A DNA stretch of 64,000 bases. It comes from Minisyncoccota bacterium (lineage in GTDB: Bacteria; Patescibacteriota; Minisyncoccia; Phycocordibacterales; UBA9973). Below the pieces are notes generated by a model. That model saw nothing but the letters and a program-made list of their open reading frames with translations, did no database searches and was not told the origin of the DNA. Positions 22,142-63,358 of the stretch are shown here, in pieces. Each line of letters starts with the position of its first letter. Positions within the stretch are counted from its first letter, which is position 1. The translations under genes and the position numbers were made by a program. The DNA lies in assembly GCA_041659845.1 (NCBI GenBank), contig JBAZXM010000003.1, positions 4,641-68,640 on the forward strand, in the 5' to 3' direction.

Positions 22142-22158
22142 CTATTCAACATGACATT

Positions 22159-22190: not shown

Positions 22191-22210
22191 TTCCGTGGCT
22201 AATTTAATCG

Positions 22211-22235: not shown

Positions 22236-22252
22236 TATTTGCATATAGATAA

Positions 22253-22772: not shown

Positions 22773-22810
22773 TTCAAAATAAAGACTTTTTATACATAAT
22801 TTGATATAGT

Positions 22811-23740: not shown

Positions 23741-23744
23741 TTGA

Positions 23745-23769
23745 ACAGCTGGGCAAGACCTAGCTAGAT
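23745..23769. repeat. hairpin repeat copy 2 (acAGCTGGGcaagaCCTAGCTagat)
   Basis: Sits exactly between the convergent stop codons at 23740 and 23769. Confidence 0.6.
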
Positions 23770-24266: not shown

Positions 24267-24281
24267 ATTGAGAGTATACCA

Positions 24282-24316
24282 AAAAACAAGCGCGCCGTGA
24301 GGCGCGCTTGTTTTAT
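24282..24316. terminator. bidirectional rho-independent terminator (CAAGCGCGCC-GTGA-GGCGCGCTTG)
   Basis: 10-bp GC stem flanked by A6 and T4. Confidence 0.75.
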
Positions 24317-24355
24317 AATCTTTTTTTGATTAGTTTAATGCTTTAAAAGCAAAGA

Positions 24356-25045: not shown

Positions 25046-25195
25046 AATAATGGACTGTCCGTTCCGTCCAGTAACGGAGCGGATTTCGGAAAATATTACC
25101 TAATAAAAATTATCTTCTTCAAGGTATGCCCTCAAAGTACATTCTTATTATAGCAAATAAGCTTATAAAAAGAGACTACCTGTGGAAAACTAATA

Positions 25196-25837
25196 TTATG
25201 ACTTTTTAATTAATCCGGTGAACTTCCCTAGATCAATTATTTTCTCATGAGGAAAATCAAAAATGTCGCGGACGAGCTTGTCGTACATATTTAGGCGGTA
25301 TATAAAATCCTGGGTTTCAAACATTGCATAGGAAATTTCTTTGCCGATTTCAGCCTCGATCCCCTTTACGGCCTGCTCTACATGCGAACGCTTGATATTG
25401 TCGCCAACAATCAAAAGATCGACTCTGCTGTCTGGATCTTGGATGAAAATACCAGCTGCCACGAGAAGTTTAATCTTGCCCACTGATTTGAAACGATCGG
25501 CTAGATCTTCCTTTTTTAAAAATTCTGCATCTATCAAGAGCGCTTGAAGCGCCGTCAAATATGGAAAAGAGTGATTAAGAAACCATCCTGGCATTTTTTT
25601 CTTTGTGATTTTCTTTGAACGGCTATTTTCAATTTCTTTATAAAAACTTTTCGCCTTAATAAAACCCATTGCTTCGAGAGCATTAATCTCTTTGCGAAGC
25701 GCCGTGCGAGCGACTCTGCTTCTAGTGGAAATTTCTTTAGCGTCAAAAATCATATCAGGGCTGAGTAGAAATAAGCGCATGACTTTCACGCGAGCGAGCG
25801 AACCGAATAATTTACCTAAAATCTGTACCGGATCCAT
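25196..25837 (-). CDS. hypothetical protein with N-terminal winged-helix and C-terminal nucleotidyltransferase-like region (track ORF 25196..25888)
   Basis: RVKVMRLFLLSPDMIFDAKEISTRSRVARTALRKEINALEAMGFI is wHTH-like. The C-terminal half contains a ...DSRVDLLIVGD motif. Confidence 0.45.
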   Translation of the reverse strand: MDPVQILGKLFGSLARVKVMRLFLLSPDMIFDAKEISTRSRVARTALRKEINALEAMGFIKAKSFYKEIENSRSKKITKKKMPGWFLNHSFPYLTALQALLIDAEFLKKEDLADRFKSVGKIKLLVAAGIFIQDPDSRVDLLIVGDNIKRSHVEQAVKGIEAEIGKEISYAMFETQDFIYRLNMYDKLVRDIFDFPHEKIIDLGKFTGLIKKS

Positions 25838-25950
25838 AATGTCCCATTCTAGCACTTTTAGCTTTCCAAGCAAAACAAAAGCCCCCATAAATGGGAGCTT
25901 TTGTTTAATTGAGTCTATCGAGGTTGAACCTTGATTACCGAAAGCTTGAG

Positions 25951-26313
25951 CTATTTAAGCTCAACTTTTCCACCAGCTTCTTCAATCTTCTTTTTAAGAT
26001 CTTCAGCTTCTGCCTTCTTCATACCATCTTTAAGTGTTGCTGGAGCGCCATCAACGATATCCTTAGCCTCTTTAAGACCAAGACCGAGAGCTTCCTTCAC
26101 AACCTTCATAACAGCGATTTTCTGTTCGCCGGCTGAAGCGAGGACTACAGTGAATGCATCCTTTTCTTCAGCTGCCGCTGCGCCTGCTGCTGGAGCAGCT
26201 GATACAGCTGCTGCGGAAACTCCGAATTTTTCTTCAATAGCCTTTACAAGGTCATTGAGCTCAAGAACTGAAGCACCTTCGAGTTCTGTAAGAAATGAAT
26301 CAAATTTTGCCAT
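25951..26313 (-). CDS. rplL: 50S ribosomal protein L7/L12
   Basis: 120 aa with Ala-rich hinge and C-terminal domain ([32 protein letters not shown]). Confidence 0.95.
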
Positions 26314-26338
26314 AATAATTTAGAATTAGTTTTATAAT

Positions 26339-26827
26339 TTAAGCTTTCTTCCCTGCAACCGCATTTACCGCAATGGCAAGGCGCTGCATAGGAGATTTGA
26401 GCAAGTATGCAATCTGTGACAGCAAGACCTCGCGTGGAGGAATTGTAGCAATAGATTCCATTTGACCCCTATCCATGAATTTCCCTTCAAAAACTCCTCC
26501 GATAATCGCGAGATTATCCTTGTGAGTTTTCTGGAAGTCATAGACTCCGCGTGCCGGAGCGAGCAGATCTTTCGCATATGCGATTGCAATCTGCCCATCA
26601 AGAGCCGGTAAGTCTCCGGAAATTCCAAGCGAATCAATGACTCGCTTCAGGAGTGTTTTCTTGGCTACCAAGTATCCAACACCTTCCTCGCGCAAATTCT
26701 TGCGGAGAGTATTGGAATCGGCGACTGTTAATTTGTTGAAGTTCACGAAAACAATAGACTCTGCACCCTTGAGTGCTGAACCGATCGTACTCACAATTTC
26801 AACTTTCTTTTCTTTTTTAATTGCCAT
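26339..26827 (-). CDS. rplJ: 50S ribosomal protein L10
   Basis: 162 aa of L10 family, immediately upstream of rplL. Confidence 0.9.
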   Translation of the reverse strand: MAIKKEKKVEIVSTIGSALKGAESIVFVNFNKLTVADSNTLRKNLREEGVGYLVAKKTLLKRVIDSLGISGDLPALDGQIAIAYAKDLLAPARGVYDFQKTHKDNLAIIGGVFEGKFMDRGQMESIATIPPREVLLSQIAYLLKSPMQRLAIAVNAVAGKKA

Positions 26828-27017
26828 ATAAATTTAGGATTTATTTGTTTTTTGCTTCAAATAAAAAAATCGACCATTCGGCCGCTGTAGAAAAATCCAT
26901 AAATTGGATTTAACCTTGGCAGGGCTTATCAGGATTTCTCCCATTGCCTGCTGTCTACGGCGTACGAATGAATCCTAGCATACAAGAGGTTTTTGTCAAA
27001 ACAATGAGAAACTAGTT

Positions 27018-27158
27018 AGTACTGTCATAAGGCGTCGCAGTAGAACTGCCAGACTGATCTTGATCATAATAGTTAATAACCATAAGCCCGACAATACCGA
27101 GAGTAAGCATACCGATAAAGCCGAAAAGGAATTTGAAAAAATGTTTATTTAACATATT
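27018..27158 (-). CDS. possible 46-aa small membrane protein (below the track threshold)
   Basis: Hand translation gives MLNKHFFKFLFGFIGMLTLGIVGLMVINYYDQDQSGSSTATPYDSTN. Confidence 0.25.
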
Positions 27159-27191
27159 TATAGCCATATTTTAACATTATTTAGAGCAAAT

Positions 27192-27222
27192 AAAAAACCG
27201 CTGTTTGGAGCGGTTTTTTATT
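27192..27222. terminator. bidirectional rho-independent terminator (CCGCT-GTTTGG-AGCGG)
   Basis: Flanked by A6 and T6. Confidence 0.6.
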
Positions 27223-27239
27223 ATAGTCTTTTTAAACTA

Positions 27240-30227
27240 TTATTTGGAATCAGTTGAATTAAACAATGATGCAGTTAAGAATCGTCCGAGAGAGCGAGCT
27301 GTGTTTTTAACTCTGGACCAGAATGAGACACGTTTCGGAGCAGTATCACCTGCTACGGTAGCAACTTCAACTTTTTCGGCAGTATTTAGAGAAATATTTG
27401 CCTTTGTTATTTTATTTGCAGATTGTGCTGATGAGATTGTTCCTTGTGTTTTAGTTAGAGGCTTCATGATTGAAGTCAATACGCTTTTCAACGGATTAAC
27501 TAATGTCTGATCCAAAACTTTCTCAATCGTGGAAGGTTCAGTTGCAGTTTCATCAGAAACAACTAAGAGTTCTGTGTTTGTTGGTGTTGTCGGTGTTGTC
27601 GGTGTTTCAACGCTCGTATAAGAATGAACTCCGGCAACATTCAATTCCAAAGTAATGACCTGCTGAGGGCTGGAATTTGAAGTACGGTCAGTATAGTTAA
27701 CAAACTTCTCATAGTGATATGGGAGATTATTTACTGCGTGAAGCACTGTGTCAACATGCGAAACCGGAATAGAACAATAATAAACTCCCGTTGTTCCAAA
27801 TTCAGGGCAAGTTATGGTGAAATTGTTGCCTGCGGTAACGGTATCGCCGGAAATATTAGTATTATAAATAGTTCGAATATCCACTACTTTCAATCCGAAT
27901 AATACATTTGAAACGCTGATTGATGCTCGAGGAGAAATAGCTGTACGATTTGTCGTTCCGAATGAAGTATTGGTAACATAAGTATCTTTCACAACAGTGA
28001 TATCCCCTGCTCCGCCATCTTGTGCTACAAGTACTGCACAGTAGTAGATACCTGCGCCACTTTCAATACATGCGGTTGCAGATGATCCGGCAGTGACGAC
28101 TGCTCCTGAAAATGCCGCTCCGTCGCCCTCACGTGTGACTGTAAGTTTCTGCGCGAATTCCAAGCCTTTACAAGAAGTAGATGCTGAAACAGAAGTCGAA
28201 CACACAGGATTTGCGCCAAGTGTGATTACGAGCTGGCCTGTAGCTGAAGTGTTTATAGTGGAAAATCCAGCATTGGTTATACCTGTATTAGCGTATCCGT
28301 CCTTGTACAATGAGAGTGCGTTTGTTCCTGAAGCCGGAGCCCAGTATGCACTGTTGGTAGAACTGTATGACGGAGCAACTCCGCCGAATGTCGCAGTGTC
28401 GAGGTTGGAAATATTGAATACTGTTCCCAATTCATTAGAAACGATTGTTTTGAATTGGAATAAAAGATTTGAAATAGCAGTTGAAGATTGTATGGATGTT
28501 CCGGAAGTTCGATTGGCTGTCGTATCATTTTTGGTAACATAGCCAGTTTTTGCAACAACGATATCATTCGCTCCACCATCCTCTGCCACTGGCACAGCAC
28601 AGTAATAAGTTGAAGCGTTTTCAATACATGCAGTTGCTAGAGATCCAGCAGTGATTGTTGCTCCAGAAATTGAAGCATTGTCGCCTTCGCGGGTTACTGT
28701 AATCTTCTGGCCGAATTCTAGACCTTTACATGAAGTAGAGGTTGAGATAGCAGATCCGCAAACAGGATTTGCGCCAAGTGTAATCACAATCTGACCTCCT
28801 GCTGAAGTAGTGACATTCATTAATCCGGCATTGGTTGTTCCAGCATCAACATAACCGTCTTCATTTAAAATGAGCGCAGCAGTTGCCGGAGCGACTGCCC
28901 AATAAGCAGTGTTGGTTGAATTTATATCAGCAGATGAACCATTAAAAGTCGCCGTATCAAGTCCTGAAAAAGTAAAAGCAGTTCCCAATTCATCAGAAAC
29001 TATTGCTTTTAATTGAAAGAGAATACCTGATACAGCAACACTAGCTTGTGCTCCAGTACCATCCACACGATCAATCGTTGCGCCTGATGTATTAGTAACG
29101 TATCCAATCTTTGTGATTTGAATATCACCTACTCCCCCATCCTCTGCCACTGGCACAGCACAGTAATAAGTTGAAGCGTTTTCAATACATGCAGTTGCTA
29201 GAGAACCGGCAGTGATTGTTGCTCCAGAAATTGAAGCACTGTCGCCTTCGCGGGTTACTGTAATCTTCTGGCCGAATTCTAGACCTTTACATGAGGTTGA
29301 TGCTGAGATCCCAGCTGCACAAGGAGCGCTTGTGTCGAGCGTAAGAGCAACTTGAGCGGTATCAGAAGTCGTAATCGCTGATAGGCCGGCGTTGGTTGTT
29401 GTTGCATCTACATAGCCGTTCTTATCTAAAACAAGCGAAGCTGTCATTGGGGCAGTTGCCCAGTAGGCAGTATTTCCTGAAATGAAATCTGGAGTGGCAG
29501 TGTTGAACGTTGCTGTATTAAAAGTAGCAAAAGGGAAAATATTTCCTAATTCATCAGCTGTAGTCACCTTCAGAGCGAAGAGAACATTCGAAACTGTGAT
29601 TGATGCCTGTGCATCTCCGTCTGTGGTACGGTCAATAGTGCTTGCAGTTGTTGTAATATATCCTGGGAGAGCTATTGAAATATCATTTGGTGTGCCGTCT
29701 TCTATGAAAGGAGTAGCGCAGTAATATACTGAAGCATTTTCAATACATGGTGTTGCGAGAGACCCAGCGGTAATTGTTGCGGCTGAAAGTGAAGCATTAT
29801 CCCCTTCGCGTGTAAGAGTAACTTTCTGTCCGAACTCTACAGCAGAAACATTATAGATGTTCGGATCAGCAACGAGCGCATCATAGGTTCCCACATTAGT
29901 CATGGTCTTTGTCACATATCCTGAAACACTTATTTGAAGATCTACTGTATCAGTATCATCACAACTTTCAGTCGTCATTGGAAGCGGCGCAGTAATCATT
30001 CCTGATCCATCAGTTGTACCGAGGGTTGCAAATGTTCCCCCCGCACACTGTATTTCAACAGTCGCGCCGGAAAGAGGAGCGTTATCCACCTCTCGAGTTA
30101 CGGTAACCTGTACATCACCTGCCGCAGCCAATACTTGACTAACAGGAGGCATTACAGAAAAAATTGCTAAAAATACTGATAAAATACTGATAAAAAATAG
30201 ATTCGCACGCAGTTTTGTTATTAACAT
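27240..30227 (-). CDS. large secreted surface protein with 4-5 tandem ~160-aa Cys-containing repeat modules and C-terminal Thr/Pro-rich region
   Basis: Signal peptide MLITKLRANLFFISILSVFLAIF. Repeats contain CKGLEFGQKITVTREGD..ATACIENASTYYCAVPVAEDGG. About 190-nt near-identical DNA repeats at 28570-28760 and 29145-29310. Confidence 0.7.
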   Translation of the reverse strand: MLITKLRANLFFISILSVFLAIFSVMPPVSQVLAAAGDVQVTVTREVDNAPLSGATVEIQCAGGTFATLGTTDGSGMITAPLPMTTESCDDTDTVDLQISVSGYVTKTMTNVGTYDALVADPNIYNVSAVEFGQKVTLTREGDNASLSAATITAGSLATPCIENASVYYCATPFIEDGTPNDISIALPGYITTTASTIDRTTDGDAQASITVSNVLFALKVTTADELGNIFPFATFNTATFNTATPDFISGNTAYWATAPMTASLVLDKNGYVDATTTNAGLSAITTSDTAQVALTLDTSAPCAAGISASTSCKGLEFGQKITVTREGDSASISGATITAGSLATACIENASTYYCAVPVAEDGGVGDIQITKIGYVTNTSGATIDRVDGTGAQASVAVSGILFQLKAIVSDELGTAFTFSGLDTATFNGSSADINSTNTAYWAVAPATAALILNEDGYVDAGTTNAGLMNVTTSAGGQIVITLGANPVCGSAISTSTSCKGLEFGQKITVTREGDNASISGATITAGSLATACIENASTYYCAVPVAEDGGANDIVVAKTGYVTKNDTTANRTSGTSIQSSTAISNLLFQFKTIVSNELGTVFNISNLDTATFGGVAPSYSSTNSAYWAPASGTNALSLYKDGYANTGITNAGFSTINTSATGQLVITLGANPVCSTSVSASTSCKGLEFAQKLTVTREGDGAAFSGAVVTAGSSATACIESGAGIYYCAVLVAQDGGAGDITVVKDTYVTNTSFGTTNRTAISPRASISVSNVLFGLKVVDIRTIYNTNISGDTVTAGNNFTITCPEFGTTGVYYCSIPVSHVDTVLHAVNNLPYHYEKFVNYTDRTSNSSPQQVITLELNVAGVHSYTSVETPTTPTTPTNTELLVVSDETATEPSTIEKVLDQTLVNPLKSVLTSIMKPLTKTQGTISSAQSANKITKANISLNTAEKVEVATVAGDTAPKRVSFWSRVKNTARSLGRFLTASLFNSTDSK

Positions 30228-30349
30228 CCTGAAAGTATACATAAGGAAAATCTTATGTCAAGAGTCATGTATAAGTGTTTGGAATAAATGATGGCTAATT
30301 TTTTCCCTTATTTTTATAAAGGACACTGTGTGTAAAATCTAAAGGACAT

Positions 30350-31147: not shown

Positions 31148-34100
31148 TTATGACGTCTTTTGGATTGTTCCAAGAGCCGGCTTACCGTCAGCTGGAAGAG
31201 CTGTGATAGTGCCAGTTATGTCACCATCTTGCTCACCATCGTAACCAAGGTTAGCTTCAGTTACAGAGAACTTAAGATCACCAATGTTTGCGATAGACAA
31301 TGAGAAGGTGTCGCCAATTGCAACAGTAGTAACTGTAGAAATAGTTACCGTGATGTATCGGTATGAACCACCATTAATTGTCGTAGTTGCTGTAAGACTA
31401 CCAAAGTCTACAGAGTCAGTACCTGAAACTTCAAGAGAGTTTGCAAGGTAGTCACTTGAGTTTTCGCTTGAAGCGTAAACTGTGTAACGAGCCGCTGTAC
31501 CAGTGTGAGCTCCGCTGTCAGTGAACTTTGCGTTAGTCAAAGTAACTTGAGCAGAACCATTATTGGTAACCTTAAAGCGTCCAAGCACTGTACCAGCACC
31601 AACATTTGATGTGGTAGATGAACCATTCGTTGGATACTCACCTGAAGCGAGTATCTGGAATGGAACAATTGTGTTTACTGAGCCTGAAAGGTTAGCTGAA
31701 CCAGCGTAAGTTGGAGCGCTGTTTGTTACAGAACCCTTTGCAATGATACCACCGTTCGCTGTTGTAGCGACATTTGCTTGGTTAGCGTCTACAGAAATTG
31801 TAAACGGAAGACCAGCAGTGTCGGAAGTAACAGTGTAAACAGTTGTACCATCAGCAGCAGTTACAACTGAAGCTTGTGCGCTTAAGTTGATTGCAGCTGT
31901 CAAACCAGCTGTGATTTCAGCAACTGTTGCAGAAGCATCAGAAGTGTAAGTTATAGCTGTGCCGTTGATAGTTGTAGTGTATACAGTGCTATTAACAGCA
32001 GTTGGGGTAACTGTGTTTACCTGTGCAGTCTGAGCTGCAACACTCATGTAGAAATCATTGCCCAATTTAGCAGTGTTTTCACCGAGAATGTCAGCCTTTA
32101 CATACAATGTAACCGGTGTTCCTGGATTTATGGTCATAGGAAGAAGGTTATCAGTTGCAGTAAAGGTGTAGTAACAGATATTTGAAGTACAAGTTGAGAA
32201 GAGACTTGCAGTCTGGAATGCAGTTGTTGCATCCAAGAGAGCGCCTGTTCCAGCCTGAGCATAAACACGGATATTACTTAGGTTGTTCTGAGTAAGAGCA
32301 GTACCTGTTGCACGAAGCTGAAGACTTGTGATCTTCTGAGCTTCATACTGTGAAGTCAAACGCGCAGAAAGGTAGATACCGTTCATTGTGTTGATCTTTA
32401 CAATCTGAGCAACAGTAGGAGTAGCACCAGTGCCTGAAACTGTTGAGAGTGTCAAAGTTCCGCCAGCAACTAGTGTCATTGCCTGACCACTTCCAGCGAT
32501 TGTAGGTGAAGAGATGCTGTTGCCAGTATCCTTACCAGTAGCAGTAACGCCACCTGAAGCAATCTTGTAAGTGTGTGTACCTGATGTACCTGTAATGATG
32601 TCACCGTAAAGCTTCAAAGTAGTATTTGTGCTTCGTCCAACAATAATTGGGCTTGTGAAGCTAAATGTTACTGTGTTTGCGTTTACAGAAGTTGAAGATG
32701 ATGTATTCATCACTGTACCAGCTGAATCCTTCATTACAAGGTTTGCAATGTTAGAGTATGCAGCTGCGCCACCGATTGTGTCGGTAACTACTATAGATGA
32801 AATGCGAGCATCCTCACCAGAAGACTGAGCGTTAAACTCGAAGTTTGCAAGCTCAAAATTGTTTGTACCAGCAACAACTGATGCAGCAACCGGAGTTGTG
32901 AGAGTTGTTACGGACAATGAAGCAGCTTGAACTGCGCGAGTAAAGCCATCAGAAACAGATACTGTAGGATCAATAGTGTCGTTAGTCAAAAGACGCTTTA
33001 CAGATGTAATGTCAAAATCATTTACAAAGTAAGCATCAGATGAAGTAGCGCTACTAGAGATAGAAGCAGTTACTTCTATGAAGCTATCAGTACCTGCAGG
33101 AAGTACGTAGTAGCTTGATAGTGATCGAGCTGAAGCAGTACCAACTACTGGGAAGTTTGTAGTGTTAGCGGCTGCGCTGTAAACAACTGCGCCGTTAACC
33201 TTAACAAATACTGTACCAGTAAGAGCTACTGATGAAGCATCCTGATCGAGACCGAATGAAACTTGGCGGAGTTCCATGTTTTCGCCAACAGGCTTAACAC
33301 GGTACTTAGCAAGTACTACATCGTTAGCACCAGGAACAACTGCAACTGAAGGTGAATCAGTAGCGCGTACAAATGTAAGCGTACCTGAACCGATAGTTAC
33401 GAGGTTGTAGTTGGTAGCATCACCGATTGGGAATGATGTGTCAGTTGTACCAGCTGCAGGCAATAGGCCAGCACCAGTACTAACGCCACGAAGATCAACA
33501 TCTCCATTTTCTTCTACGACAAACTGAATTGTTCGTGAAGCACCGTCAACGATCTTAGCGCGTATTGTAAAGTCTTTTGTCTGTCCCTTAGTGATAAGGT
33601 ACGGAGTTGCAAGAGTAAACATTATGTCGCCATTTGTTGAAGGCTGAGCTGTCGCAATAATAGAACCTGTCTGATCAAGGAGTTCTACATCCTTGTAGTC
33701 AGTTGCTGAAGCATTTCCATTGTTTCGGACCTTGAAGCCATGAAGTCTTACGTCTTCATTACTTGAAGTTTCGCGAATTCGGAATTTAGTGATTTCCTGT
33801 GCGCTTGTAGCATCAGCATTCATAGTGATACCTGAAGCGTTAACCGGCTGAACATCAAATGTTGTAGTACCGATAGAAGAAGTTCCATCGATAACTGACA
33901 TTAGATTTCCGCTGATTGGGAATGAACCACCAACAGTGCCGCCTGAAACTATAACATCAGAAGCAGACTTGATGTTGAAACCAAGAGTTCCTGCGTTAGA
34001 TGTAGAAGCGACATTAACCTTGACCCATAGAGTCATTGTCTGACCAGCAGCAATGACGATAGGATCAGAAGAGAATGTCATGATTGCAATGCCGTCAGCA

Positions 34101-34840
34101 CCAAGAGTGGTGACAACATTACCATGGCGTACGCCACTTCCATCATAAACAGAAATACCTGCAATGTTAGTGTTGCCGTAGTAACCTGTTTTTGTAAGGT
34201 TTACACCGCTGACATTAACTGTTGAAGATGTACTGTTTGTAATGTTGAAGCCCAGAACTTTGTTGTTCGCACTACCGGTTGCAATGTATCCGGAAGCAGG
34301 ATTTTCAGAGGAAAGTGAAACAGTCACTGAACCTGTGATTGAAGTACCTGAACCAGAACATGGCTGTCCTGTAGTTGAACTGAATCCTGCAGTTGATGAA
34401 CAACCTGCTGGATAAGTCGTAGTCAAAGTAGTAGAACATGCTACTCCTGTGGTAGGACTAAATCCTGTGGTTGAAGTACAACCTGCTGGAAGAGTTGTTG
34501 AACCGCCCATTGAATTCAACACACCTCGTGTGATTGAACCAACGAATCCGGCAACAGGGCTGATGTTGTGCTTAGCCTGGAATTTCAAAACAGCAGAGTG
34601 AGTCTTCGCACCGAAGTATGAAGTCTCCATGCCGATTGAACCAGCACCAGAAGCGGAAACGAGAGTAGCAGCATCTGTGTTAAGAACTTTTTGGAGTTCT
34701 TTAACATCAGGTGATGTCATACCCATCTTCAAGTTTGTGTTGAAGGTGTAAGCGTGTGCGACTGAAGCGCCAGCAAGCACGAGTACTCCTACGAACAAAC
34801 CTAAAGCTGCTTTCGCAAATTTAGAATATGTTTTTAACAT
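31148..34840 (-). CDS. giant (~1230 aa) secreted surface protein with N-terminal peptidoglycan-binding-like domain and Thr/Ser/Ala-rich repeat region
   Basis: Signal peptide MLKTYSKFAKAALGLFVGVLVLAGASVAHA. Peptidoglycan-binding-like block LQKVLNTDAATLV..KFQAKHNISPVAGFVGSITRGVL. Long low-complexity repeated region follows. Confidence 0.7.
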   Translation of the reverse strand: MLKTYSKFAKAALGLFVGVLVLAGASVAHAYTFNTNLKMGMTSPDVKELQKVLNTDAATLVSASGAGSIGMETSYFGAKTHSAVLKFQAKHNISPVAGFVGSITRGVLNSMGGSTTLPAGCTSTTGFSPTTGVACSTTLTTTYPAGCSSTAGFSSTTGQPCSGSGTSITGSVTVSLSSENPASGYIATGSANNKVLGFNITNSTSSTVNVSGVNLTKTGYYGNTNIAGISVYDGSGVRHGNVVTTLGADGIAIMTFSSDPIVIAAGQTMTLWVKVNVASTSNAGTLGFNIKSASDVIVSGGTVGGSFPISGNLMSVIDGTSSIGTTTFDVQPVNASGITMNADATSAQEITKFRIRETSSNEDVRLHGFKVRNNGNASATDYKDVELLDQTGSIIATAQPSTNGDIMFTLATPYLITKGQTKDFTIRAKIVDGASRTIQFVVEENGDVDLRGVSTGAGLLPAAGTTDTSFPIGDATNYNLVTIGSGTLTFVRATDSPSVAVVPGANDVVLAKYRVKPVGENMELRQVSFGLDQDASSVALTGTVFVKVNGAVVYSAAANTTNFPVVGTASARSLSSYYVLPAGTDSFIEVTASISSSATSSDAYFVNDFDITSVKRLLTNDTIDPTVSVSDGFTRAVQAASLSVTTLTTPVAASVVAGTNNFELANFEFNAQSSGEDARISSIVVTDTIGGAAAYSNIANLVMKDSAGTVMNTSSSTSVNANTVTFSFTSPIIVGRSTNTTLKLYGDIITGTSGTHTYKIASGGVTATGKDTGNSISSPTIAGSGQAMTLVAGGTLTLSTVSGTGATPTVAQIVKINTMNGIYLSARLTSQYEAQKITSLQLRATGTALTQNNLSNIRVYAQAGTGALLDATTAFQTASLFSTCTSNICYYTFTATDNLLPMTINPGTPVTLYVKADILGENTAKLGNDFYMSVAAQTAQVNTVTPTAVNSTVYTTTINGTAITYTSDASATVAEITAGLTAAINLSAQASVVTAADGTTVYTVTSDTAGLPFTISVDANQANVATTANGGIIAKGSVTNSAPTYAGSANLSGSVNTIVPFQILASGEYPTNGSSTTSNVGAGTVLGRFKVTNNGSAQVTLTNAKFTDSGAHTGTAARYTVYASSENSSDYLANSLEVSGTDSVDFGSLTATTTINGGSYRYITVTISTVTTVAIGDTFSLSIANIGDLKFSVTEANLGYDGEQDGDITGTITALPADGKPALGTIQKTS

Positions 34841-35031
34841 AGTGATAATTAAGTGATGCACCTCTCTGTACAAGATCGCTCTCATATAAAAAGATGCGGT
34901 GCGCGATTAAATTTAATTTCGACAAATTAATAGTGCGCACCATGATTGAAAAAATTATCCGGAGCAATAATTATAATAAATGCCCGTAATAATTTCCCAA
35001 GCCATTTCCCCGTGAAGAGAAATGGACGAAC

Positions 35032-45058: not shown

Positions 45059-48000
45059 TTAAGGTATTATTGGTTCAGGATTAGAAATTGGTGCTGGGTC
45101 GGGAGTGGGAGCAGGATCAGATTCCTCAATTGGAGGAGTGATTGGGTCTGGCACAGGGTCAGAAATTGGTGCAGGATCAGGAGTTGGTGCAGGGTCCGGG
45201 GCTGGAGATGGATCTTGATAAGATTGATTAGTATTACAATCACCCGCTGTTTGAGAGAGTGATCCGTTTTTTATTTTTATACAATATAAAGTTCCAGTAT
45301 CTTCATCTTTGAGTTCAATCTTATCAAATGTTCCCTTTTGTGCGGTAATTGTATTCGCAATCAATTCCTGCACCCTCACAACCCCATTCACAATCTTCTC
45401 CTCAGTACTAAATAGATAATCCATGATGAGTTTCTTCAGAGTTGAGGAACCTGTTCCATCATCGAGAGTTTCAAGACCCTTGAGACGGAGATCCAGTGCT
45501 TGCACTGAACCCATGAGTAAGCCGTTGACTGAAACTTGATCGATGGAATTGCCTTGCATAAATAGCGGATCGACTTCGTCAGCAATGAATCCGAGGTGAG
45601 CTTTAGAAAGAGGGTTATCAGTACCGTAGCCTTGTACTTCTTTGATGTAACGGAACATTCTTAGTGGTGCAGAAACAACTTTATCAAGAGCTTGCGATGG
45701 ATCTGTGTATGGGGTGATGTCTTGTTTGGTATCTCTGGTTGATGTTTGATCTCCCACAACTACGCCTGCTGTGTCATTGGCATTCGTTGGAGCGGCGGTG
45801 TGTATGCGGAGCTTGCCGGCTGCGTCTTGCCATGTATAACCTGCGGTGCCAGTATTACTTTGAAAGTTGATGGAGCCTGCGCCGGGAGTAGCGTTGGTGT
45901 TGCGGCCGAGGGTGAGGACTGGGCCGGCGGCGCCGGAGCCGAAGTCGTTGTTGGCAAATGTAATATCGCCTGTATTTGTAATTCGCATTCTTTCAATCAA
46001 AGTTCCTCCTGTTGCTGTTGAGAAGTATATTGACCCTGCATTTTCAGCTGTTCCAAAATTTTCTAGCCCTATTCTGGCTGTATTCACAGGAGTAGTTGCT
46101 CCAACCCACCAGTTCAAGCCGTTCAAATCTGCTCCGTTAGATATAGCGTCTGAGTTAGACCAGAATTCCATTACTGGAAGAACAGAGTTGGCATTAGTTA
46201 TAGTAATACCCCTAAATCCTGCACCTGCTTTGATTGGAGTAGTGGTCCCGATACCCAAATTCCCCGTACTCCCCTGCACAAACAGAGAAGAAGTTCCGGA
46301 GGAATTCGTGAAGTTCGCAGTAGATCTGTGAATAGTATAAGTTTCTCCGGTTACTCCGGCTGTGAATGCAGGAGTGATTGTGAATGACGTACCTGTTGCT
46401 GTTGTGACTATTGCACGAGCTTGGCCAGTGGTGGTGGTAGGGATAATGTAATCGCCTGCGTTTAGGGTGACACTAGATGATGTGGTGAATGTGGTAGCTG
46501 TGTCTACTGCGGTCATTGTGACAGCTCCGCTGGATGTAGTACCTCCGAGTGTTTGGAGTTGAGCGGTAGGAGTGGTGGTGCCGATGCCGACGTTGCCGGC
46601 AGAATCTATTCGCATTCTTTCTGTACCTGTATTCGTTCCTGTTGGGGTGGTATAAAACATCAAACGACCAGGCATACTACCAACCCCCGGCACTCCATCA
46701 ACTGATGAACGAATCAATGCTGATTGTTGAAAAGTTACACCATCAGAACCTTGAAATTCTAATTCACCAATATTGTCAGCATTATTGACTATCGTTTGTC
46801 CGCCCTTAGTTGCCGAACGAGAAAATTGAAGTTTTAAACGAGAACTTCCGTTAGTATTACTAAAAAAACCTAAACGTAAAGCTCTAGTAGCACTAGTGTT
46901 TGATTGAATATCAAGAATTTCTGTCGGTGCTGTTGTACCGATGCCCATATTCCCTGCACTATCTATTCTCATTCTCTCAGTCAAAACACTTGGCGAAGCA
47001 TCAGTAGCTGTCGAAAAAGAGACATTTGTTGGAACTCTGTCAGTTCCTATCGTACCTTCCGCGGCGAAGTCAATCGAGCCCATTTGCTTAAAATTAGTTC
47101 CGTCATATCCTTCTGCAACAAAAGATGTCAACCTATCCCCAGTAACTATTGTTGTCGGAATTGCTTCTGTGCCTCTGGCTTTTCTTCCAAGAAAAATAGA
47201 GCCAAGTGTATTAGTAGAATATTGAGCAGACATTATACCTCGAACCGCCACTGCTGTAGTTTCTGAAACATGAATTTTTGATAATGGTGCTGTCGTGCCA
47301 ATACCAACATTCCCCATGATATTCATTCCCCCTTGGTAGATGTTGTTTAGAGAAATTGCAATGTAGTCGGTTTTGCCGGAGGTCATGACGCGATTGCCTG
47401 TTCCTGTGTTGGAGACGGCGACGAACATGCCGTTGCCATAAGTAATGCCTTCCCAAATATTGTCAGCAACGCTAGTGCGCGTTACCCATGTAATACCATC
47501 AGGTGAAGTCATGACGCGGTTGCCTGTGCCAGAAGCACCTATTGCAACAAACAGACCGTTACCATATGTAATACCAAACCAACTGTTGTCCGCTGCACTT
47601 GTTCTACTTGTCCATGTGATGCCGTCCGGTGAGGTCATGACGCGGTCGGAGGTGCCGGTGTTTGAAACCGCCACAAAGAGACCGTTACCATAGGTTACTG
47701 CAATCCAGTTGTTATCTACTGCACTTGTTCTACTTGTCCATGTAATACCATCAGGTGAAGTCATGACGCGGTTGCCGGAGCCGGTAGTAGATACCGCAAC
47801 AAACAATCCATTGCCGTAGGTGACACCAAGCCAGCTATTATCCGCTGCGCTTGTGCGGGATGTCCACGTAATGCCGTCAGGTGAGGTCATGACGCGGTTG
47901 CCGGAGCCGGTAGAAGCCACTGCAACAAAAAGTCCGTTACTGTAAGTGACATCACGCCAGGTATTATCTGCTGCACTTGTGCGGGATGTCCAGGTGATGC

Positions 48001-48448
48001 CGTCAGGTGAGGTCATGACGCGGTTGCTAGTGCCATCAGCAGAGATCGCAACAAAAAGTCCGTTGCCGTAAGTAATGCCAACCCATTGATTATCTACAGC
48101 ACTTGTACGAATAGTCCAGTTGATGCCATCAGGTGAAGTCATGACGCGGTTTCCGGAGCCAGTACCTGCTACCGCTACAAAAAGTCCATTTCCATAAGCC
48201 ACATTATTCCACTCATTATCCGCTGCGCTGGTGCGTGAAGTCCAGCTCGTACCCTTGGAAAGAGTATTACTGACATCTACAGTGCAGTCTACTGATCCCG
48301 GGGTACAATTGGGATCTAGTGTTTGACCAGGAGAGAATGATGCTAGGAGTTGTAATCCTGAGGAGAAGATCGCAAATGAAGCAAGCGAAACGATAAGAAT
48401 GGAGTTTCGTTTGAAAAAGAGTTTGGTATGTTTAAAAATAGTTGACAT
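45059..48448 (-). CDS. large secreted protein with eight BNR/Asp-box beta-propeller repeats, Thr/Gly-rich middle, C-terminal intramolecular-chaperone (peptidase S74, phage tail-fibre type) domain and Pro-rich tail
   Basis: Eight copies of MTSPDGITWTSRTSAADNxWxGVTYGNGLFVAV (SxDxGxTW Asp-box). The C-terminal block TRDTKQDITPY..LRMFRYIKEVQGYGTD..AHLGFIADEV..LDLRLKGLE resembles endosialidase-chaperone domains. Tail is PAPDPAPTPDP. Confidence 0.7.
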   Translation of the reverse strand: MSTIFKHTKLFFKRNSILIVSLASFAIFSSGLQLLASFSPGQTLDPNCTPGSVDCTVDVSNTLSKGTSWTSRTSAADNEWNNVAYGNGLFVAVAGTGSGNRVMTSPDGINWTIRTSAVDNQWVGITYGNGLFVAISADGTSNRVMTSPDGITWTSRTSAADNTWRDVTYSNGLFVAVASTGSGNRVMTSPDGITWTSRTSAADNSWLGVTYGNGLFVAVSTTGSGNRVMTSPDGITWTSRTSAVDNNWIAVTYGNGLFVAVSNTGTSDRVMTSPDGITWTSRTSAADNSWFGITYGNGLFVAIGASGTGNRVMTSPDGITWVTRTSVADNIWEGITYGNGMFVAVSNTGTGNRVMTSGKTDYIAISLNNIYQGGMNIMGNVGIGTTAPLSKIHVSETTAVAVRGIMSAQYSTNTLGSIFLGRKARGTEAIPTTIVTGDRLTSFVAEGYDGTNFKQMGSIDFAAEGTIGTDRVPTNVSFSTATDASPSVLTERMRIDSAGNMGIGTTAPTEILDIQSNTSATRALRLGFFSNTNGSSRLKLQFSRSATKGGQTIVNNADNIGELEFQGSDGVTFQQSALIRSSVDGVPGVGSMPGRLMFYTTPTGTNTGTERMRIDSAGNVGIGTTTPTAQLQTLGGTTSSGAVTMTAVDTATTFTTSSSVTLNAGDYIIPTTTTGQARAIVTTATGTSFTITPAFTAGVTGETYTIHRSTANFTNSSGTSSLFVQGSTGNLGIGTTTPIKAGAGFRGITITNANSVLPVMEFWSNSDAISNGADLNGLNWWVGATTPVNTARIGLENFGTAENAGSIYFSTATGGTLIERMRITNTGDITFANNDFGSGAAGPVLTLGRNTNATPGAGSINFQSNTGTAGYTWQDAAGKLRIHTAAPTNANDTAGVVVGDQTSTRDTKQDITPYTDPSQALDKVVSAPLRMFRYIKEVQGYGTDNPLSKAHLGFIADEVDPLFMQGNSIDQVSVNGLLMGSVQALDLRLKGLETLDDGTGSSTLKKLIMDYLFSTEEKIVNGVVRVQELIANTITAQKGTFDKIELKDEDTGTLYCIKIKNGSLSQTAGDCNTNQSYQDPSPAPDPAPTPDPAPISDPVPDPITPPIEESDPAPTPDPAPISNPEPIIP

Positions 48449-59878: not shown

Positions 59879-62800
59879 TTACTTTTCTATTGTAACCTTA
59901 AACACCATATCTTCGATCTTGATTTCGGTGCCGTCATTTTCAGTAAATGAAACATCTTTTACCAGCACAGTCTTTTTGAGATCCGATTCGAATTTTTCTA
60001 TTAGAGATTTGCCAATACTATCTGTTTGGATTGAAAGAGAAATCACATCACTAGGGGTGAGCCCTTGTTGCTTACGCAAATCTTGCAATCCTCGGACAAG
60101 CTCGCGATAATTCCCTTCGGCTTTCAATTCTGGAGTGATTGTAGTATCAAACTCAAAATCCTCTGCGACTGCCGAATTTTGTACCACATTTTTAATATTA
60201 AGTTCGTCTTTAATTATTTCACTGTATTCTATTCCTAATTCGTAATTTTTAATTCGTAATTCATTCAGTGGTTGTCGTACTGGAATACCAAGCTTCTTGC
60301 GGAGTGCATTGCCTCCAGTACAGATAGTGCGCACTGTTTCTATGTTTTTAATAAGTTCTTCATCAGTAGTCCGAGATTCCGGCCAATTTTCAAGATGCAC
60401 CGATTCTTTATCTCCTTCATTCTTCAATTTCTGCCATATGTCTTCCGAAGCGAACGGCGCAAACGGTGCCATAAATTTCGCAAGGTTGATGAGAACAATA
60501 TAAAGTGTTTGTTTTGATTCCGCGTCCACTTCTTTTATACGATCACGCGAGCGGCGGACGTACCAAGTTGAGAGGTCGTCGATAAATGAGCGGATTAGAC
60601 GAACTGGTTCCAAGATTTTGAATCCATCCAAATGGTCAGTTATTTTTTTATTCAAGACATTCAGCTCCGCGAGAATCCACTGATCGAGTACATTCTTCGG
60701 CATGAAGTCGGTGGGCTGCGTCTCTAAATTCTTGTCTCGATACAATTCATAAAAAGCGAGAACATTATAGAGCAGGTTGAAAACTTTATTATGAAGTTCT
60801 GCGACAGTCTTTTCGTCGAAATTTTTAGAATCTCCCGGCTGATTAACTGCATACATCCACAATCGGAGCGTATCAACGCCGTATTTATCAATCATCGTCC
60901 ACGGGTCAACAATGTTTCCCTGTGACTTCGACATCTTCTTACCCTTTTCATCGAGAATATGCCCTAAGCAAATAACATTCTTGTATGCCTTACCGCGACC
61001 CATGAGAATTCCGACAGCATGAAGCGTGTAGAACCATCCGCGAGTCTGATCGATTGCCTCGGAAATATAATCTGCCGGGTAGCCTTTGGTATCTACCCAT
61101 TCTTTGTTCTCAAACGGATAGTGATCCTGAGCAAAAGGCATCGCGCCGGAATCAAACCAAACATCCATAACTTCTTTCACACGCTTCATCGGCTCTCCGT
61201 CATCAGACACGAGCTCAATCTCATCGATATATGGTCGATGCAAATCAAGTTCATACTTTTCATTGTGCGGAATTGGAACAAAAGGCAATAGTCTAATCTC
61301 TGCATTATTCGGCGGATTGTTTAAATCATTTCTTGTTGCCATATCAGCAAAAGTAACCCCTTCTGCAATAAAATTCAGAGCTCGCTCTGTCCCGGAGTGA
61401 CTGATAATTAATATATTTTTTCCATCATACTTCGCATCAATATCATAGATAAAATCTCCAGCCCTATTCACGACATCAGCGAAGCTTTCTCCGTCAGAAA
61501 ATCTTTTCTCGGGTTCAAATACATAATCATGGTCATAGTATTGCTTCATGGCAGAACGATCTTTTCCGATAAATTCAGAACTGATCTGCCATTCATGAAT
61601 GCGATCATCATAAACAACCTGATCTAAAGGAAAGTTTAATTGCTGGCATAGTATGGCAGTAGTTTCTTTCGTACGCACGTATGGAGAAGATATTATGATA
61701 TCAACTTTTTGATTAAACTCTTTTGTTTTTTCTAAAACTTGTTTTTGCCCGTTTTCAGTCAAAGGGCATGGGGCGGAATCAACAACACATTCCTCAGTAA
61801 CATTATTTACCGCTTCTCCATGACGCATAACAAAGTAGGTATTCCCGGATTTTTTGGTTTTTTTCTTAAGGTCTTCCAGCGAGCCTATGACCTCTGTTTT
61901 TCCGCTCTCCGTTGTCCATATCGGCAACGGAGTACCCCAATAACGCTCGCGGGAAATCGCCCAGTCTTTGATATCCTTCAGCCATTCGCCGAAGCGCCCA
62001 TCGCGAATATGAGCAGGTTCCCAATTAATCGATTGATTTTCTTTAACCATCTCGTCGCTAAGAGATGACATGCGGATATACCACGAATCACGTGCGAAGT
62101 AGATAAGCGGAGTCTTACAGCGCCAACAATGCGGATAGGAGTGCTCGTATTTTTCTTTTTTGAAGAGTAGTCCACGATGAGCCAAATCTTTGATTATTTC
62201 CACAGCCGTAGCTTCATCCTTCACAAATTTCCCCGCCAGGAATCCTGTCTCAGGCTTGAATGTTCCGTCATCATTCACGAGGTGATACTTCGGCAAACCG
62301 ACTTTCGTCCCAAGCTCAAAGTCCTCCTGCCCGTACATTACAGCGGTGTGTACGATACCAGTACCGTCGGTCGTAGTCACGAAATCCGCCGGATAGACTT
62401 TAAAAGCATTTGGAAGTTTTTCCCTTTCCGCACCGCTGACATCATCTTGAAGAAATGGGTAGAGTGGTTCGTATTCGAGACCGACAAGATTCGTACCTTT
62501 TATTTTTTCTATAATTTCATATGCTTCAGTGATAACTGACAATCGAGATCCAGCAAGATAAATAAAGCCATCGCCGATTTTAATTTTTACATAATCAATT
62601 TTCTCCCCCACGGCTAGCCCAACATTACCGGGCAATGTCCATGGTGTCGTCGTCCAAGCTAGAATATATTCATTCTCCTTCCCTGAAATTTTGAATTTCA
62701 CATACACAGACAAATCTTTCACATCTTCATATCCTTGCGCGAGTTCATGCGAAGAAAGCGCTGTTCCGCAACGCGGGCACCATGGCACAACCTTGTAGTC

Positions 62801-63358
62801 TTTATAGAGAAAATTCTTATCCGAAACATTTTTTAAAACATTCCAAACGGATTCTATATATTTGGATTCATAAGTGACATACGGATTTTCCTGATCTACC
62901 CAATATCCGATACGATGAGTAAATTTATTCCAAATGTCCAAAAATTCCCAAACGCTTTCTTTACATTCTTTGTTAAATTGCGCTATTCCGTAGTTTTCAA
63001 TTTCTTTCTTTGACGACAACCCGAGCTTTTTCTCCACCTGTAACTCCACCGGTAAACCGTGTGTATCCCAGCCGCCCTTTCTGCGTACATGAAATCCGCG
63101 CATTGTCTTGTAGCGAGGGATAATATCTTTGAATGCACGAGCCTCCAAGTGGTGAATACCCGGCTTGCCGTTCGCCGTCGGCGGACCTTCGTAAAAAACG
63201 AATTCACCCTTGGGCGCTTCTTTTTCCAAAGATTTTTTGAATATCTGCTGCTCATTCCAGAATTCCAGAATTTTTTCTTCACGCTCTGCAGCAGCTGATT
63301 TTTCTTGCTTTTTTTCCGAAGGTTCCATAGAAATCACTTTAGCATATTCCTGCTTCAA
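59879..63358 (-). CDS. ileS: isoleucyl-tRNA synthetase (type 2) with an inserted ~200-aa histidine-phosphatase (PGAM-family) domain
   Basis: P(T)ANG..HHL (HIGH), editing-domain WTTTPWTLPGN, WAISRERYWGTPLP, then the insertion FVMRHGEAVNN..SSPYVRTKETT..DDRIHEW..ILIISHSGTERAL, then LHRPYIDE..DVWFDSG..KMSKS. Confidence 0.9.
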   Translation of the reverse strand: MKQEYAKVISMEPSEKKQEKSAAAEREEKILEFWNEQQIFKKSLEKEAPKGEFVFYEGPPTANGKPGIHHLEARAFKDIIPRYKTMRGFHVRRKGGWDTHGLPVELQVEKKLGLSSKKEIENYGIAQFNKECKESVWEFLDIWNKFTHRIGYWVDQENPYVTYESKYIESVWNVLKNVSDKNFLYKDYKVVPWCPRCGTALSSHELAQGYEDVKDLSVYVKFKISGKENEYILAWTTTPWTLPGNVGLAVGEKIDYVKIKIGDGFIYLAGSRLSVITEAYEIIEKIKGTNLVGLEYEPLYPFLQDDVSGAEREKLPNAFKVYPADFVTTTDGTGIVHTAVMYGQEDFELGTKVGLPKYHLVNDDGTFKPETGFLAGKFVKDEATAVEIIKDLAHRGLLFKKEKYEHSYPHCWRCKTPLIYFARDSWYIRMSSLSDEMVKENQSINWEPAHIRDGRFGEWLKDIKDWAISRERYWGTPLPIWTTESGKTEVIGSLEDLKKKTKKSGNTYFVMRHGEAVNNVTEECVVDSAPCPLTENGQKQVLEKTKEFNQKVDIIISSPYVRTKETTAILCQQLNFPLDQVVYDDRIHEWQISSEFIGKDRSAMKQYYDHDYVFEPEKRFSDGESFADVVNRAGDFIYDIDAKYDGKNILIISHSGTERALNFIAEGVTFADMATRNDLNNPPNNAEIRLLPFVPIPHNEKYELDLHRPYIDEIELVSDDGEPMKRVKEVMDVWFDSGAMPFAQDHYPFENKEWVDTKGYPADYISEAIDQTRGWFYTLHAVGILMGRGKAYKNVICLGHILDEKGKKMSKSQGNIVDPWTMIDKYGVDTLRLWMYAVNQPGDSKNFDEKTVAELHNKVFNLLYNVLAFYELYRDKNLETQPTDFMPKNVLDQWILAELNVLNKKITDHLDGFKILEPVRLIRSFIDDLSTWYVRRSRDRIKEVDAESKQTLYIVLINLAKFMAPFAPFASEDIWQKLKNEGDKESVHLENWPESRTTDEELIKNIETVRTICTGGNALRKKLGIPVRQPLNELRIKNYELGIEYSEIIKDELNIKNVVQNSAVAEDFEFDTTITPELKAEGNYRELVRGLQDLRKQQGLTPSDVISLSIQTDSIGKSLIEKFESDLKKTVLVKDVSFTENDGTEIKIEDMVFKVTIEK
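61247..61852 (-). other. histidine-phosphatase/phosphoglycerate-mutase-family domain embedded in IleS (approx. residues 503-704)
   Basis: PROSITE-like [LIVM]-x-R-H-G-[EQ]-x-x-x-N matches VMRHGEAVNN. SPYVRTKETT, an E-containing RIHEW loop and SHSG supply the remaining catalytic positions. Confidence 0.7.

Follow-up and report, generated by a model that had tools for sequence, protein, structure and literature searches.

We analysed a 64-kb stretch (64,000 nucleotides) of contig JBAZXM010000003.1, referred to below as the window, in which a single open reading frame (ORF) on the minus strand, at positions 45059..48448, encodes a large protein that joins a seven-bladed β-propeller, a long fibre shaft and a C-terminal intramolecular-chaperone domain of the Peptidase_S74 (S74) family. 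Read from the ATG at 48448, the product comprises 1129 amino acids followed by a stop codon and is identical to NCBI MFA5933795.1 (locus tag WC795_01040), which is recorded as ‘MAG: hypothetical protein WC795_01040 [Candidatus Paceibacterota bacterium]’ (MAG, metagenome-assembled genome) and lies on a 69-kb contig. With the alternative in-frame GTG at 48478, the protein would be 10 residues longer (1139 amino acids). We prefer the ATG because a paralogue of the protein, P0058, opens with an identical MSTIFKH, and because a promoter-like site (TTGACT-16-AATATT, 48516-48489) located just upstream of the ORF would overlap the GTG. The motifs quoted in a first-pass annotation of this DNA, namely SPDGITWT..YGNGLFVAV..GNRVMT, DTKQDITPY, LRMFRYIKE, GFIADEV, LDLRLKGLE and PAPDPAPTPDP, were all found in the translated ORF. 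The features of the gene, with the evidence for each, are as follows.

45059..48448, minus strand: whole coding sequence of the propeller-fibre-S74 protein (ORF, identical to MFA5933795.1).
48341..48448, minus strand: residues 1-36, probable Sec signal peptide (sequence; cleavage placed after Ala36, LLA/SF).
48263..48340, minus strand: residues 37-62, conserved N-terminal leader SFSPGQTLDPNCTPGSVDCTVDV with Cys48-x6-Cys55 (paralogue and motif recurrence in the candidate phyla radiation, CPR).
47381..48262, minus strand: residues 63-356, seven-bladed β-propeller of 7 x 42 amino acids (AlphaFold2, repeat statistics, Pfam EPTP, Foldseek).
45743..47380, minus strand: residues 357-902, connector (SGKTDY..NNIYQGG) and then fibre shaft with ERMRI-type repeats (matches to mosaic adhesive trimer, MAT, fibres and to PHROG families).
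47285..47314, minus strand: capping-loop-like motif 1, GNVGIGTTAP (aligns with GNVGVGVGAPT and GNVGIGTTTT of MAT structures).
46925..46954, minus strand: capping-loop-like motif 2, ERMRIDSAGNMGIGTTAP (sequence, MAT alignment).
46568..46597, minus strand: capping-loop-like motif 3, ERMRIDSAGNVGIGTTTP (sequence, MAT alignment).
46235..46264, minus strand: capping-loop-like motif 4, GNLGIGTTTP (sequence).
45461..45742, minus strand: residues 903-996, Peptidase_S74 intramolecular-chaperone domain of a variant subfamily (Pfam PF13884, hhalign, dyad conservation).
45740-45742, minus strand: predicted catalytic Ser903 (invariance across the subfamily).
45725-45727, minus strand: predicted catalytic Lys908 (invariance across the subfamily).
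45236..45460, minus strand: residues 997-1071, post-S74 extension with a helical segment (LKKLIMDYL..VRVQELI) and a two-cysteine module LYCIKIKNGSLSQTAGDC (paralogue identity, similar modules).
45059..45235, minus strand: residues 1072-1129 and stop, low-complexity Pro/Asp-rich tail PAPDPAPTPDP... (sequence).

The C-terminal chaperone domain had been recognised in the first-pass annotation, and our searches bear this out. For Pfam Peptidase_S74 (PF13884), which has a cut-off of 22 bits, the whole protein scores 22.3 bits and residues 880-1065 on their own score 26.0 bits; the model also matches all eight close subfamily members. The catalytic motif is a variant one, reading Q-T-S-T-R-D-T-K-Q-D-I here versus the canonical S-S-D-x-R-L-K-x-N-I. 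Profile-profile alignment (hhalign) of the subfamily with the canonical S74 domains of related fibres gave a probability of 95.4% (E 1.9e-8), the Ser and Lys residues being aligned, and these canonical domains in turn match solved chaperones, including those of phage tail fibres (8JOV, 6F45, 8HQZ (T5)), MyRF (7DC3) and phi29 gp12 (3GUD). A HMMER scan of 1.84 billion representatives yielded 442 proteins at E 0.001 or better, 70 of them at E 1e-30 or better. Specifically, Ser, Arg at +2 and Lys at +5 are invariant in all 71 subfamily representatives (clusters at 50% identity), with adjacent positions varying, and Ser and Lys are likewise invariant in 69 of 69 more distant HMMER hits. In the S74 family the chaperone aligns three chains and drives the folding of the β-helical shaft. 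Because the dyad is strictly conserved, we predict that the protein cleaves itself between Thr902 and Ser903 by means of the Ser903-Lys908 dyad. In the Bdellovibrio protein Bd3182, S74 self-cleavage at the Ser has been demonstrated: the structure stops at A781, and an S782A mutant is blocked (PMC10769870).

Upstream of the chaperone domain, the region described in the first-pass annotation as Thr/Gly-rich is indeed rich in Thr, Gly, Ala and Ser; rather than a mere linker, however, it is by its homology to MAT fibres and PHROG families a fibre shaft of approximately 550 amino acids. Searched with phmmer against solved MAT fibres, the shaft matches 8OML (Bd1334; E 1e-12), 8OND (Bd2133; 2e-10), 8OL4 (Bd2439; 5e-10) and 8ON4, and weakly 8OJN (Bd3182), the whole MAT set spanning E 1e-12 to 0.3; the PDB codes were assigned to Bdellovibrio proteins through PMC10769870. 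The alignments pass through ERMRIDSAGNxGIGTxAPT, and the shaft holds four GNxGIGTTxP motifs, which resemble the capping-loop consensus of MAT fibres and MyRF (PMC10769870). Additionally, the shaft matches the PHROG tail-fibre families 9942 (E 4e-30) and 18345 (E 4e-27). By homology, the shaft would form a trimeric β-helix. The distal shaft together with the S74 domain is closest to proteins that carry no propeller (P0127, P0130, P0129 and P0138), and a tblastn search with this part gave no match in 50,697 phage genomes.

At the opposite end of the protein, residues 1-36, with a basic n-region (KHTKLFFKR), a hydrophobic core at residues 16-36 and Ala at position -1, probably constitute a Sec signal peptide that is cut after Ala36; Ala likewise precedes PGQ by three residues in the related leaders of loci L010, L011, L017 and L020. 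The leader, which follows directly (SFSPGQTLDPNCTPGSVDC), was traced by a scan of one genome per species and by a motif search with [YF]xPG[QE]TL[DN]PxCxPx4C. Other CPR S74 fibres, whose shafts are unrelated, carry its motif PGQTLDPNCxPx4C as well. In particular, it is borne by a 975-aa Paceibacteria protein (L010) with an NTxG-repeat shaft and an S74 match of 47.5 bits, whose gene adjoins rpsL/rpsG/fusA, and by an 867-aa Kaiserbacteria protein (L020) with an S74 match of 32.4 bits, whose gene adjoins atpD. The leader also heads ORFs running past the locus end in Paceibacteria (L017) and Saccharibacteria (L011 and L013), and the motif is found on six S74 fibres among the HMMER hits (P0246, P0249, P0287, P0288, P0290 and P0324). 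The propeller is absent from all other leader-bearing proteins found, and no Pfam or NCBIfam model covers the leader. We regard the leader as the best candidate for docking the fibre to the cell, in the role of the invariant N-domain of MAT fibres, which sit on the surface of Bdellovibrio bacteriovorus (PMC10769870). Directly beside two of the leader-bearing fibre genes (L010:12912-13958 and L020:8467-9954, both on the plus strand) is a gene whose product combines repeated G[YF]AW..GWINF motifs with a C-terminal hydrophobic segment and has no Pfam match. This GWINF-repeat protein could be a conserved partner or anchor of leader-bearing fibres; the 64-kb window holds no ORF of this type.

The paralogue P0058 (NCBI MFA5933617.1, 1006 aa) is named ‘tail fiber domain-containing protein’, comes from Candidatus Paceibacterota and lies on a 72.5-kb contig; it apparently derives from the same MAG, as judged from accessions that are 178 apart. 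In a global alignment, the two proteins are 99% identical over residues 1-80 and 75-85% identical over the propeller, but only 15-25% identical over the shaft and the S74 domain, and the S74 motif of P0058 is canonical (SSDQSLKHDI). As judged from this alignment, the base is constant and the distal part swapped, as in phage tail fibres and in the MAT repertoire. A paralogue with the same leader and propeller and another shaft and tip suggests a small fibre repertoire of differing specificities. When the unique shaft of P0058 was used in a metagenome scan, distant relatives only were retrieved. A shaft segment of about 65 residues in P0058 (residues ~575-640, TGSGRFIGTGTSVLTGSIDP...GDSITVNAETRRVTVITDALNLTVD) shows 65-74% identity to marine and freshwater metagenome contigs, including TARA contigs (loci L026-L040), which suggests that fibre proteins widely exchange this segment as a small insert domain.

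The propeller between leader and shaft has a confident structure model. Computed by AlphaFold2 for residues 55-375 with the help of 16 homologous domains, the model has a predicted local distance difference test (pLDDT) score of 90.7 and a predicted template-modelling (TM) score of 0.88 and shows 7 x 4 strands, the ring being probably closed by the N-terminal strand (GTSWTSR). Each blade bears W..V.YGNGLFVAV..GNRVMT and the hairpin SPDGITW, which the model places between the RVMT strand and the TWT-type strand. Foldseek against the PDB ranked seven-bladed Ycf48 at the top (E 3e-13, TM 0.66-0.73, 13-15% identity); Kelch domains and designed propellers came next. The isolated domain matches Pfam EPTP (PF03736) at 32.9 bits versus a cut-off of 21, and among the aligned propeller domains EPTP is found in 17 of 17 and DUF6242 in 15 of 17. 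The propeller had been called a BNR/Asp-box propeller. Its sequence S-P-D-G-I-[TN]-W, present in six blades, falls one residue short of the Asp-box S-x-D-x-G-x-T-W, and Pfam BNR, BNR_2 and PSII_BNR did not match the propeller at E up to 10; the name thus describes a fair resemblance, with membership not demonstrated. The six-bladed sialidase fold is excluded, as the propeller has seven blades. The domain is very widespread: a homology search with the whole protein found 7145 proteins at E 1e-5 or better, most of which align over the propeller alone, typically about 26% of the query; many of the propeller homologues come from Bacteroidota, in which the propeller is joined to other surface-protein domains.

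With respect to the number and likeness of the blades, our results depart from the first-pass annotation, which had counted eight blades of about 40 amino acids with DNA repeats about 90% identical. We find seven blades of exactly 42 amino acids each (residues 63-356; window 47381-48262), of which copy 1 has SKGTSW where the others have SPDGITW, and the array terminates in TSGKTD. Mean identity between blades is 73% at the protein level and 70% at the DNA level (range 58-86%). Tandem Repeats Finder reports a 126-bp period with 76% matches, and the longest exact DNA match between any blades is 28 nt. Blade identity amounts to 78%, 85% and 49% at the first, second and third codon positions, respectively. 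Hence, the repeats are old and are held alike by selection on the protein, rather than by recent duplication or gene conversion. The propeller of P0058 also has seven blades, and in the first 120 homologues 112 of 222 repeat runs comprise seven blades and 15 runs comprise 14 (tandem propellers). Recombinational length variation, which had been envisaged for this array, is therefore unlikely, given the 49% third-position identity and a blade count that is seven in the paralogue and peaks at seven among homologues. Recent repeat expansion or contraction is ruled out by that same third-position identity together with the fixed blade count; the number is fixed at seven because a closed ring requires it. 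Promoter-like sequences (TGGACA/TGGACT-18-GATAAT) recur every 126 bases within the repeats (window 47837-48244, minus strand). We rejected them as internal promoters, since they stem from the repeated ..WTSRTSAADN.. codons and inflate the regional promoter count.

Relatives of the propeller are also encoded by phages. In a library of predicted viral structures (BFVD), the best match to the propeller is A0A6J7WX40, an uncultured Caudovirales ‘intramolecular chaperone auto-processing domain containing protein’ (56% identity, TM 0.92); a second chaperone-domain protein also matches, followed by a Hokovirus collagen-repeat protein and by tail-fibre and baseplate proteins. Among sequenced phage genomes, the propeller occurs in two Synechococcus jumbo phages, B3 and B23 (46% identity, with 93% of the domain aligned), and in Stenotrophomonas and Xanthomonas jumbo phages. 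Additionally, the annotated tail fibre of Caulobacter phage KSC holds a homologous propeller (30% identity over 72% of the domain); this fibre has a Phage_T7_tail adaptor at its N-terminus and propeller repeats in its distal half, and lacks an S74 domain. On these matches, the propeller is a module that phages employ in receptor-binding proteins, and its pairing with a chaperone domain is not unique to this gene. Five CPR and other fibres of 1600-1950 aa (P0007, P0032, P0091, P0048 and P0052) carry two or three full seven-bladed propellers spaced along a single shaft. In P0007 and P0032, the sequence (L/V)E(V/I)(I/V)GNIISKGTxWT stands ahead of each propeller and MTSGK(T/P)D comes after it. The propeller, flanked in this way and present in several copies along a shaft, therefore behaves as an insertable cassette in the fibre.

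Beyond the S74 domain, the Pro-rich tail PAPDPAPTPDP noted in the first-pass annotation is present at residues 1072-1129. A Pfam Trypan_PARP match to this tail is spurious, being of low complexity and far below its cut-off. Modules similar to the extension that links the chaperone to the tail are found in P0007, P0032, P0129 and P0138, and low-complexity Pro/Thr/Glu-rich tails also end the leader-bearing fibres of L010 and L020 as well as P0007, P0032 and P0058. After the predicted cleavage, the extension would depart with the chaperone fragment.

Taken together, the S74 domain, a shaft of MAT and PHROG type and the cellular context make the first-pass idea of a domesticated tail-fibre-like adhesin the best reading, and we propose with moderate confidence that the gene encodes an exported trimeric surface fibre, assembled and cleaved by its S74 domain and held by its leader, that serves adhesion to another cell or surface. 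In this model, the protein would be exported via its N-terminal signal peptide, after which the S74 domain, as in other members of the family, would register three chains and drive the folding of the β-helical shaft. Ser903-Lys908 would then cut at Thr902/Ser903, which would free a 227-residue fragment in which the two-cysteine module and Pro-rich tail follow the chaperone. The mature fibre (approximately residues 37-902) would stay on the cell by its N-terminal Cys-loop leader, with three seven-bladed propellers near the fibre base as auxiliary binding modules, probably for glycans, and with the tip of the shaft exposed by cleavage. Finally, the tip may bind a surface structure of another cell, as probably may the propellers. 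The part swapped between the protein and P0058 includes the shaft-tip region, and by analogy with phage fibres and MATs we consider the end of the shaft immediately ahead of the S74 cleavage site more likely to determine specificity than the propeller alone.

Several observations weigh against this proposal. The propeller would sit at the presumed cell-proximal end, as opposed to the propellers of KSC, which lie downstream of the N-terminal adaptor, and the orientation of the fibre is not settled. The window contains no partner gene adjoining the fibre gene, which bears on how a fibre with a cleaved signal peptide stays on the cell. The long post-S74 extension has no role in the favoured explanation. 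At the position after the catalytic Ser, the protein has Thr, and the subfamily T/I/V, versus the Asp of the usual SDxxxK. The close-subfamily profile found no match among PDB sequences at E up to 10, and because this profile alone matches no solved structure, the link to solved chaperones was made in the two steps described above. An AlphaFold2 model of residues 880-1065, built from an 8-sequence alignment, has a pLDDT of 41 and is unreliable; the order of secondary structure elements in it (helix, two strands, long helix at 975-994) is compatible with a chaperone fold, with the same caution, and the S74 fold is thus supported by sequence profiles only. Additionally, the episymbiont lifestyle of the MAG is assumed from its phylum.

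A rival arrangement is a reversed fibre, in which the C-terminal extension and Pro-rich tail would span or bind the wall and the N-terminal propellers would form the distal, ligand-binding head, the S74 domain either not cutting or cutting and remaining associated. Pro-rich segments are typical of the wall-spanning regions of Gram-positive surface proteins, and the subfamily carries an unusually long stretch after the S74 match (median 149 residues in the close subfamily versus 7.5 in more distant hits), of which residues 1001-1040 are conserved between the paralogues at 68% identity; the propellers of KSC, moreover, are distal to the virion-binding adaptor. On the other hand, the invariant Ser-Lys dyad argues for cleavage, which would detach a C-terminal anchor, and the C-terminus has neither a transmembrane segment nor an LPXTG-like signal. 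A reversed fibre would also put at its tip the most conserved part of the protein, namely the leader, which is 99% identical between the paralogues and common to CPR fibres, contrary to the usual logic of fibres. Furthermore, in the multi-propeller relatives the propellers are placed along the shaft as side decorations rather than as a terminal head. We consider this arrangement unlikely.

A fibre held by its leader and matured by S74 cleavage also has to be weighed against the view that the S74-like domain is a degenerate, non-cleaving relic and the protein a large, repeat-rich surface protein or structural protein of the envelope, of an ordinary kind that does not mature as tail fibres do. 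The whole-protein Pfam score that barely reaches the cut-off, the replacement of the Asp of SDxxxK by Thr, the missing match of the subfamily profile to solved structures and the poor structure model would all suit such a relic; however, Ser, Arg at +2 and Lys at +5 have remained invariant in 71 of 71 representatives while their neighbours vary, every one of the eight close members passes the Pfam S74 model, and hhalign places the dyad in alignment at 95%. A degenerate, non-cleaving domain strikes us as improbable.

The genomic surroundings speak for a cellular gene. On the low-coordinate side the fibre gene is flanked by the genes for S6, single-stranded DNA-binding protein (SSB) and EF-P, and on the high-coordinate side by those for TatD, methionyl-tRNA synthetase (MetRS), an AI-2E transporter and an M16 peptidase; S6, SSB, TatD and MetRS share the strand of the fibre gene. 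At other places, the window contains the genes for RecA, FtsK, isoleucyl-tRNA synthetase (IleRS), SecD and FtsW and those for 23S and 5S ribosomal RNA (rRNA). A Pfam scan of 20 ORFs across the 64 kb turned up no phage gene, so the claim that the gene has housekeeping neighbours and is not in a prophage holds for this window. The G+C content of the gene is 0.46, with 0.54 at second codon positions (GC2) and 0.37 at third positions (GC3), the latter being inside the host range of 0.29-0.47. The raised G+C is due to second codon positions, reflecting a Gly/Ala/Thr/Pro-rich composition, and not to GC3, and a foreign origin on the grounds of G+C was rejected. Promoter-like sites lie upstream of both the fibre gene and rpsF, and no terminator-like site was found between the gene and its neighbours.

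Against this background, the idea that the gene is viral, being part of a prophage or phage remnant or of a phage contig misjoined to the MAG and encoding a true virion tail fibre, is in our view very unlikely: the propeller, shaft and S74 domain all have phage counterparts and NCBI names the paralogue after tail fibers, but housekeeping genes flank the ORF on both sides and on the same strand, GC3 is that of the host, the protein has a signal peptide that virion proteins do not need, the related leader-bearing CPR fibres adjoin rpsL/rpsG/fusA and atpD, and the distal shaft and S74 domain go unmatched in the phage genomes searched. An enzymatic propeller, acting as a sialidase or another glycosidase like that of endosialidase tailspikes, would make the protein a surface depolymerase rather than an adhesin. 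In favour of this idea, it was on endosialidases that S74 domains were originally described, the hairpin of the blades is similar to an Asp-box, and related phage propellers are annotated ‘BNR repeat domain protein’. We give it hardly any credence: the propeller has seven near-identical blades, whereas sialidases have six that are differentiated; Pfam models for BNR, sialidases and glycosyl hydrolases gave no match; the top fold matches (Ycf48, Kelch, WD40 and virginiamycin lyase) are mostly binding scaffolds; and at 73% identity among blades, one asymmetric active site could hardly be accommodated.

Some further features of the window were noted. Two giant ORFs on the minus strand (27240-30242 and 31148-34885, 1000 and 1245 aa) are rich in Gly, Ala and Thr, with GC2 of about 0.52 and GC3 of about 0.30; one is without a Pfam match and the other matches only a peptidoglycan-binding domain near its N-terminus, and they probably encode other envelope or surface proteins. 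The IleRS ORF (59879-63358, minus strand, 1159 aa) contains a His_Phos_1 domain (residues 509-673, E 8e-24) that splits the halves of the catalytic domain, and such a histidine-phosphatase domain within IleRS is an unusual fusion or insertion. The 23S rRNA gene (17753-21254, minus strand) spans 3502 bases versus the 2925 positions of the model and thus holds approximately 580 bases of insertions; introns are common in the rRNA genes of CPR bacteria. A 5S rRNA gene lies at 17304-17410 and a tRNA gene at 17581-17656, and no 16S rRNA gene was found in the searched stretch 16500-27500.

Little is known about the ways in which ultrasmall CPR bacteria recognise their hosts and cling to them, and the literature we found centres on type IV pili; in the library searched, no paper joins CPR or Patescibacteria with S74 fibres. 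A cell-encoded fibre made of phage receptor-binding parts is a concrete candidate for host recognition that can be tested without culturing the organism, and its N-terminal leader may be a CPR-specific surface-docking signal. We advance, as a tentative proposition that we would not yet call probable, that CPR bacteria possess their own family of host-recognition fibres, derived from phage tail fibres and matured by S74, with a shared docking leader and with shafts, tips and propellers swapped between paralogues; such fibres would be a main determinant of host choice in these episymbionts and a counterpart of the MAT repertoire. The fibre type itself is not fundamentally new, having already been described in Bdellovibrio; the mechanism is taken from well-studied families, and NCBI already labels such proteins ‘tail fiber domain-containing protein’.

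Comparison with known systems places the protein between cellular and phage fibres. Ycf48/HCF136 and other seven-bladed propellers of Asp-box type, together with the EPTP and DUF6242 repeats, share its seven four-stranded blades and a Ser-x-Asp-Gly...Trp hairpin that links the last strand of one repeat to the first of the next. Ycf48, however, is only 13-15% identical, has blades far less alike than the 73% found here and is a free-standing assembly factor rather than part of a fibre, and the protein described here lacks the BNR and PSII_BNR Pfam matches. The tail fibre of the cultured Caulobacter podophage KSC/Percy shares a homologous propeller, but has a phage T7-type adaptor, no S74 domain and propellers in its distal half. 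Phage fibres and tailspikes with an intramolecular chaperone (K1F endosialidase, T5 pb1 and S16 gp38-type; PF13884) likewise have the S74 domain right after the shaft; the pairing of propeller and chaperone is seen in A0A6J7WX40 of uncultured Caudovirales, and PHROG families match the shaft. Unlike these, the protein has no T7-tail or collar domain in Pfam, and it has a secretion signal, a housekeeping context and a distal shaft and S74 subfamily unmatched in sequenced phage genomes.

The closest parallel is the S74 subgroup of Bdellovibrio MAT fibres, such as Bd3182. Like these, the protein is cell-encoded and starts with a signal peptide, has a long Thr/Gly-rich shaft with GNxGIGTxxP capping-loop motifs that is alignable to solved MAT shafts, ends its shaft in a C-terminal S74 chaperone/protease with a Ser...Lys dyad, and has a paralogue with constant N-terminus and swapped distal parts. 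It differs in that the invariant, β-rich MAT N-domain of about 130 amino acids, which has no PDB homologue, is absent and is replaced by the 26-residue Cys-loop leader and the propeller, in that it reads STRDTK versus SDxxxK, and in that about 130 residues (the two-cysteine module and the Pro-rich tail) follow the chaperone. Additionally, its host belongs to the Paceibacterota (CPR) rather than being a Gram-negative predator, and it is known from sequence alone. We do not file it as a member of the MAT family because the defining N-terminal domain of about 130 amino acids is absent. By its homologies, the protein is best described as MAT-like in function and shaft, as a member of Peptidase_S74 with a variant motif and as belonging to the NCBI class ‘tail fiber domain-containing protein’, and it would carry the MAT concept beyond a Gram-negative predator into a very different lineage.

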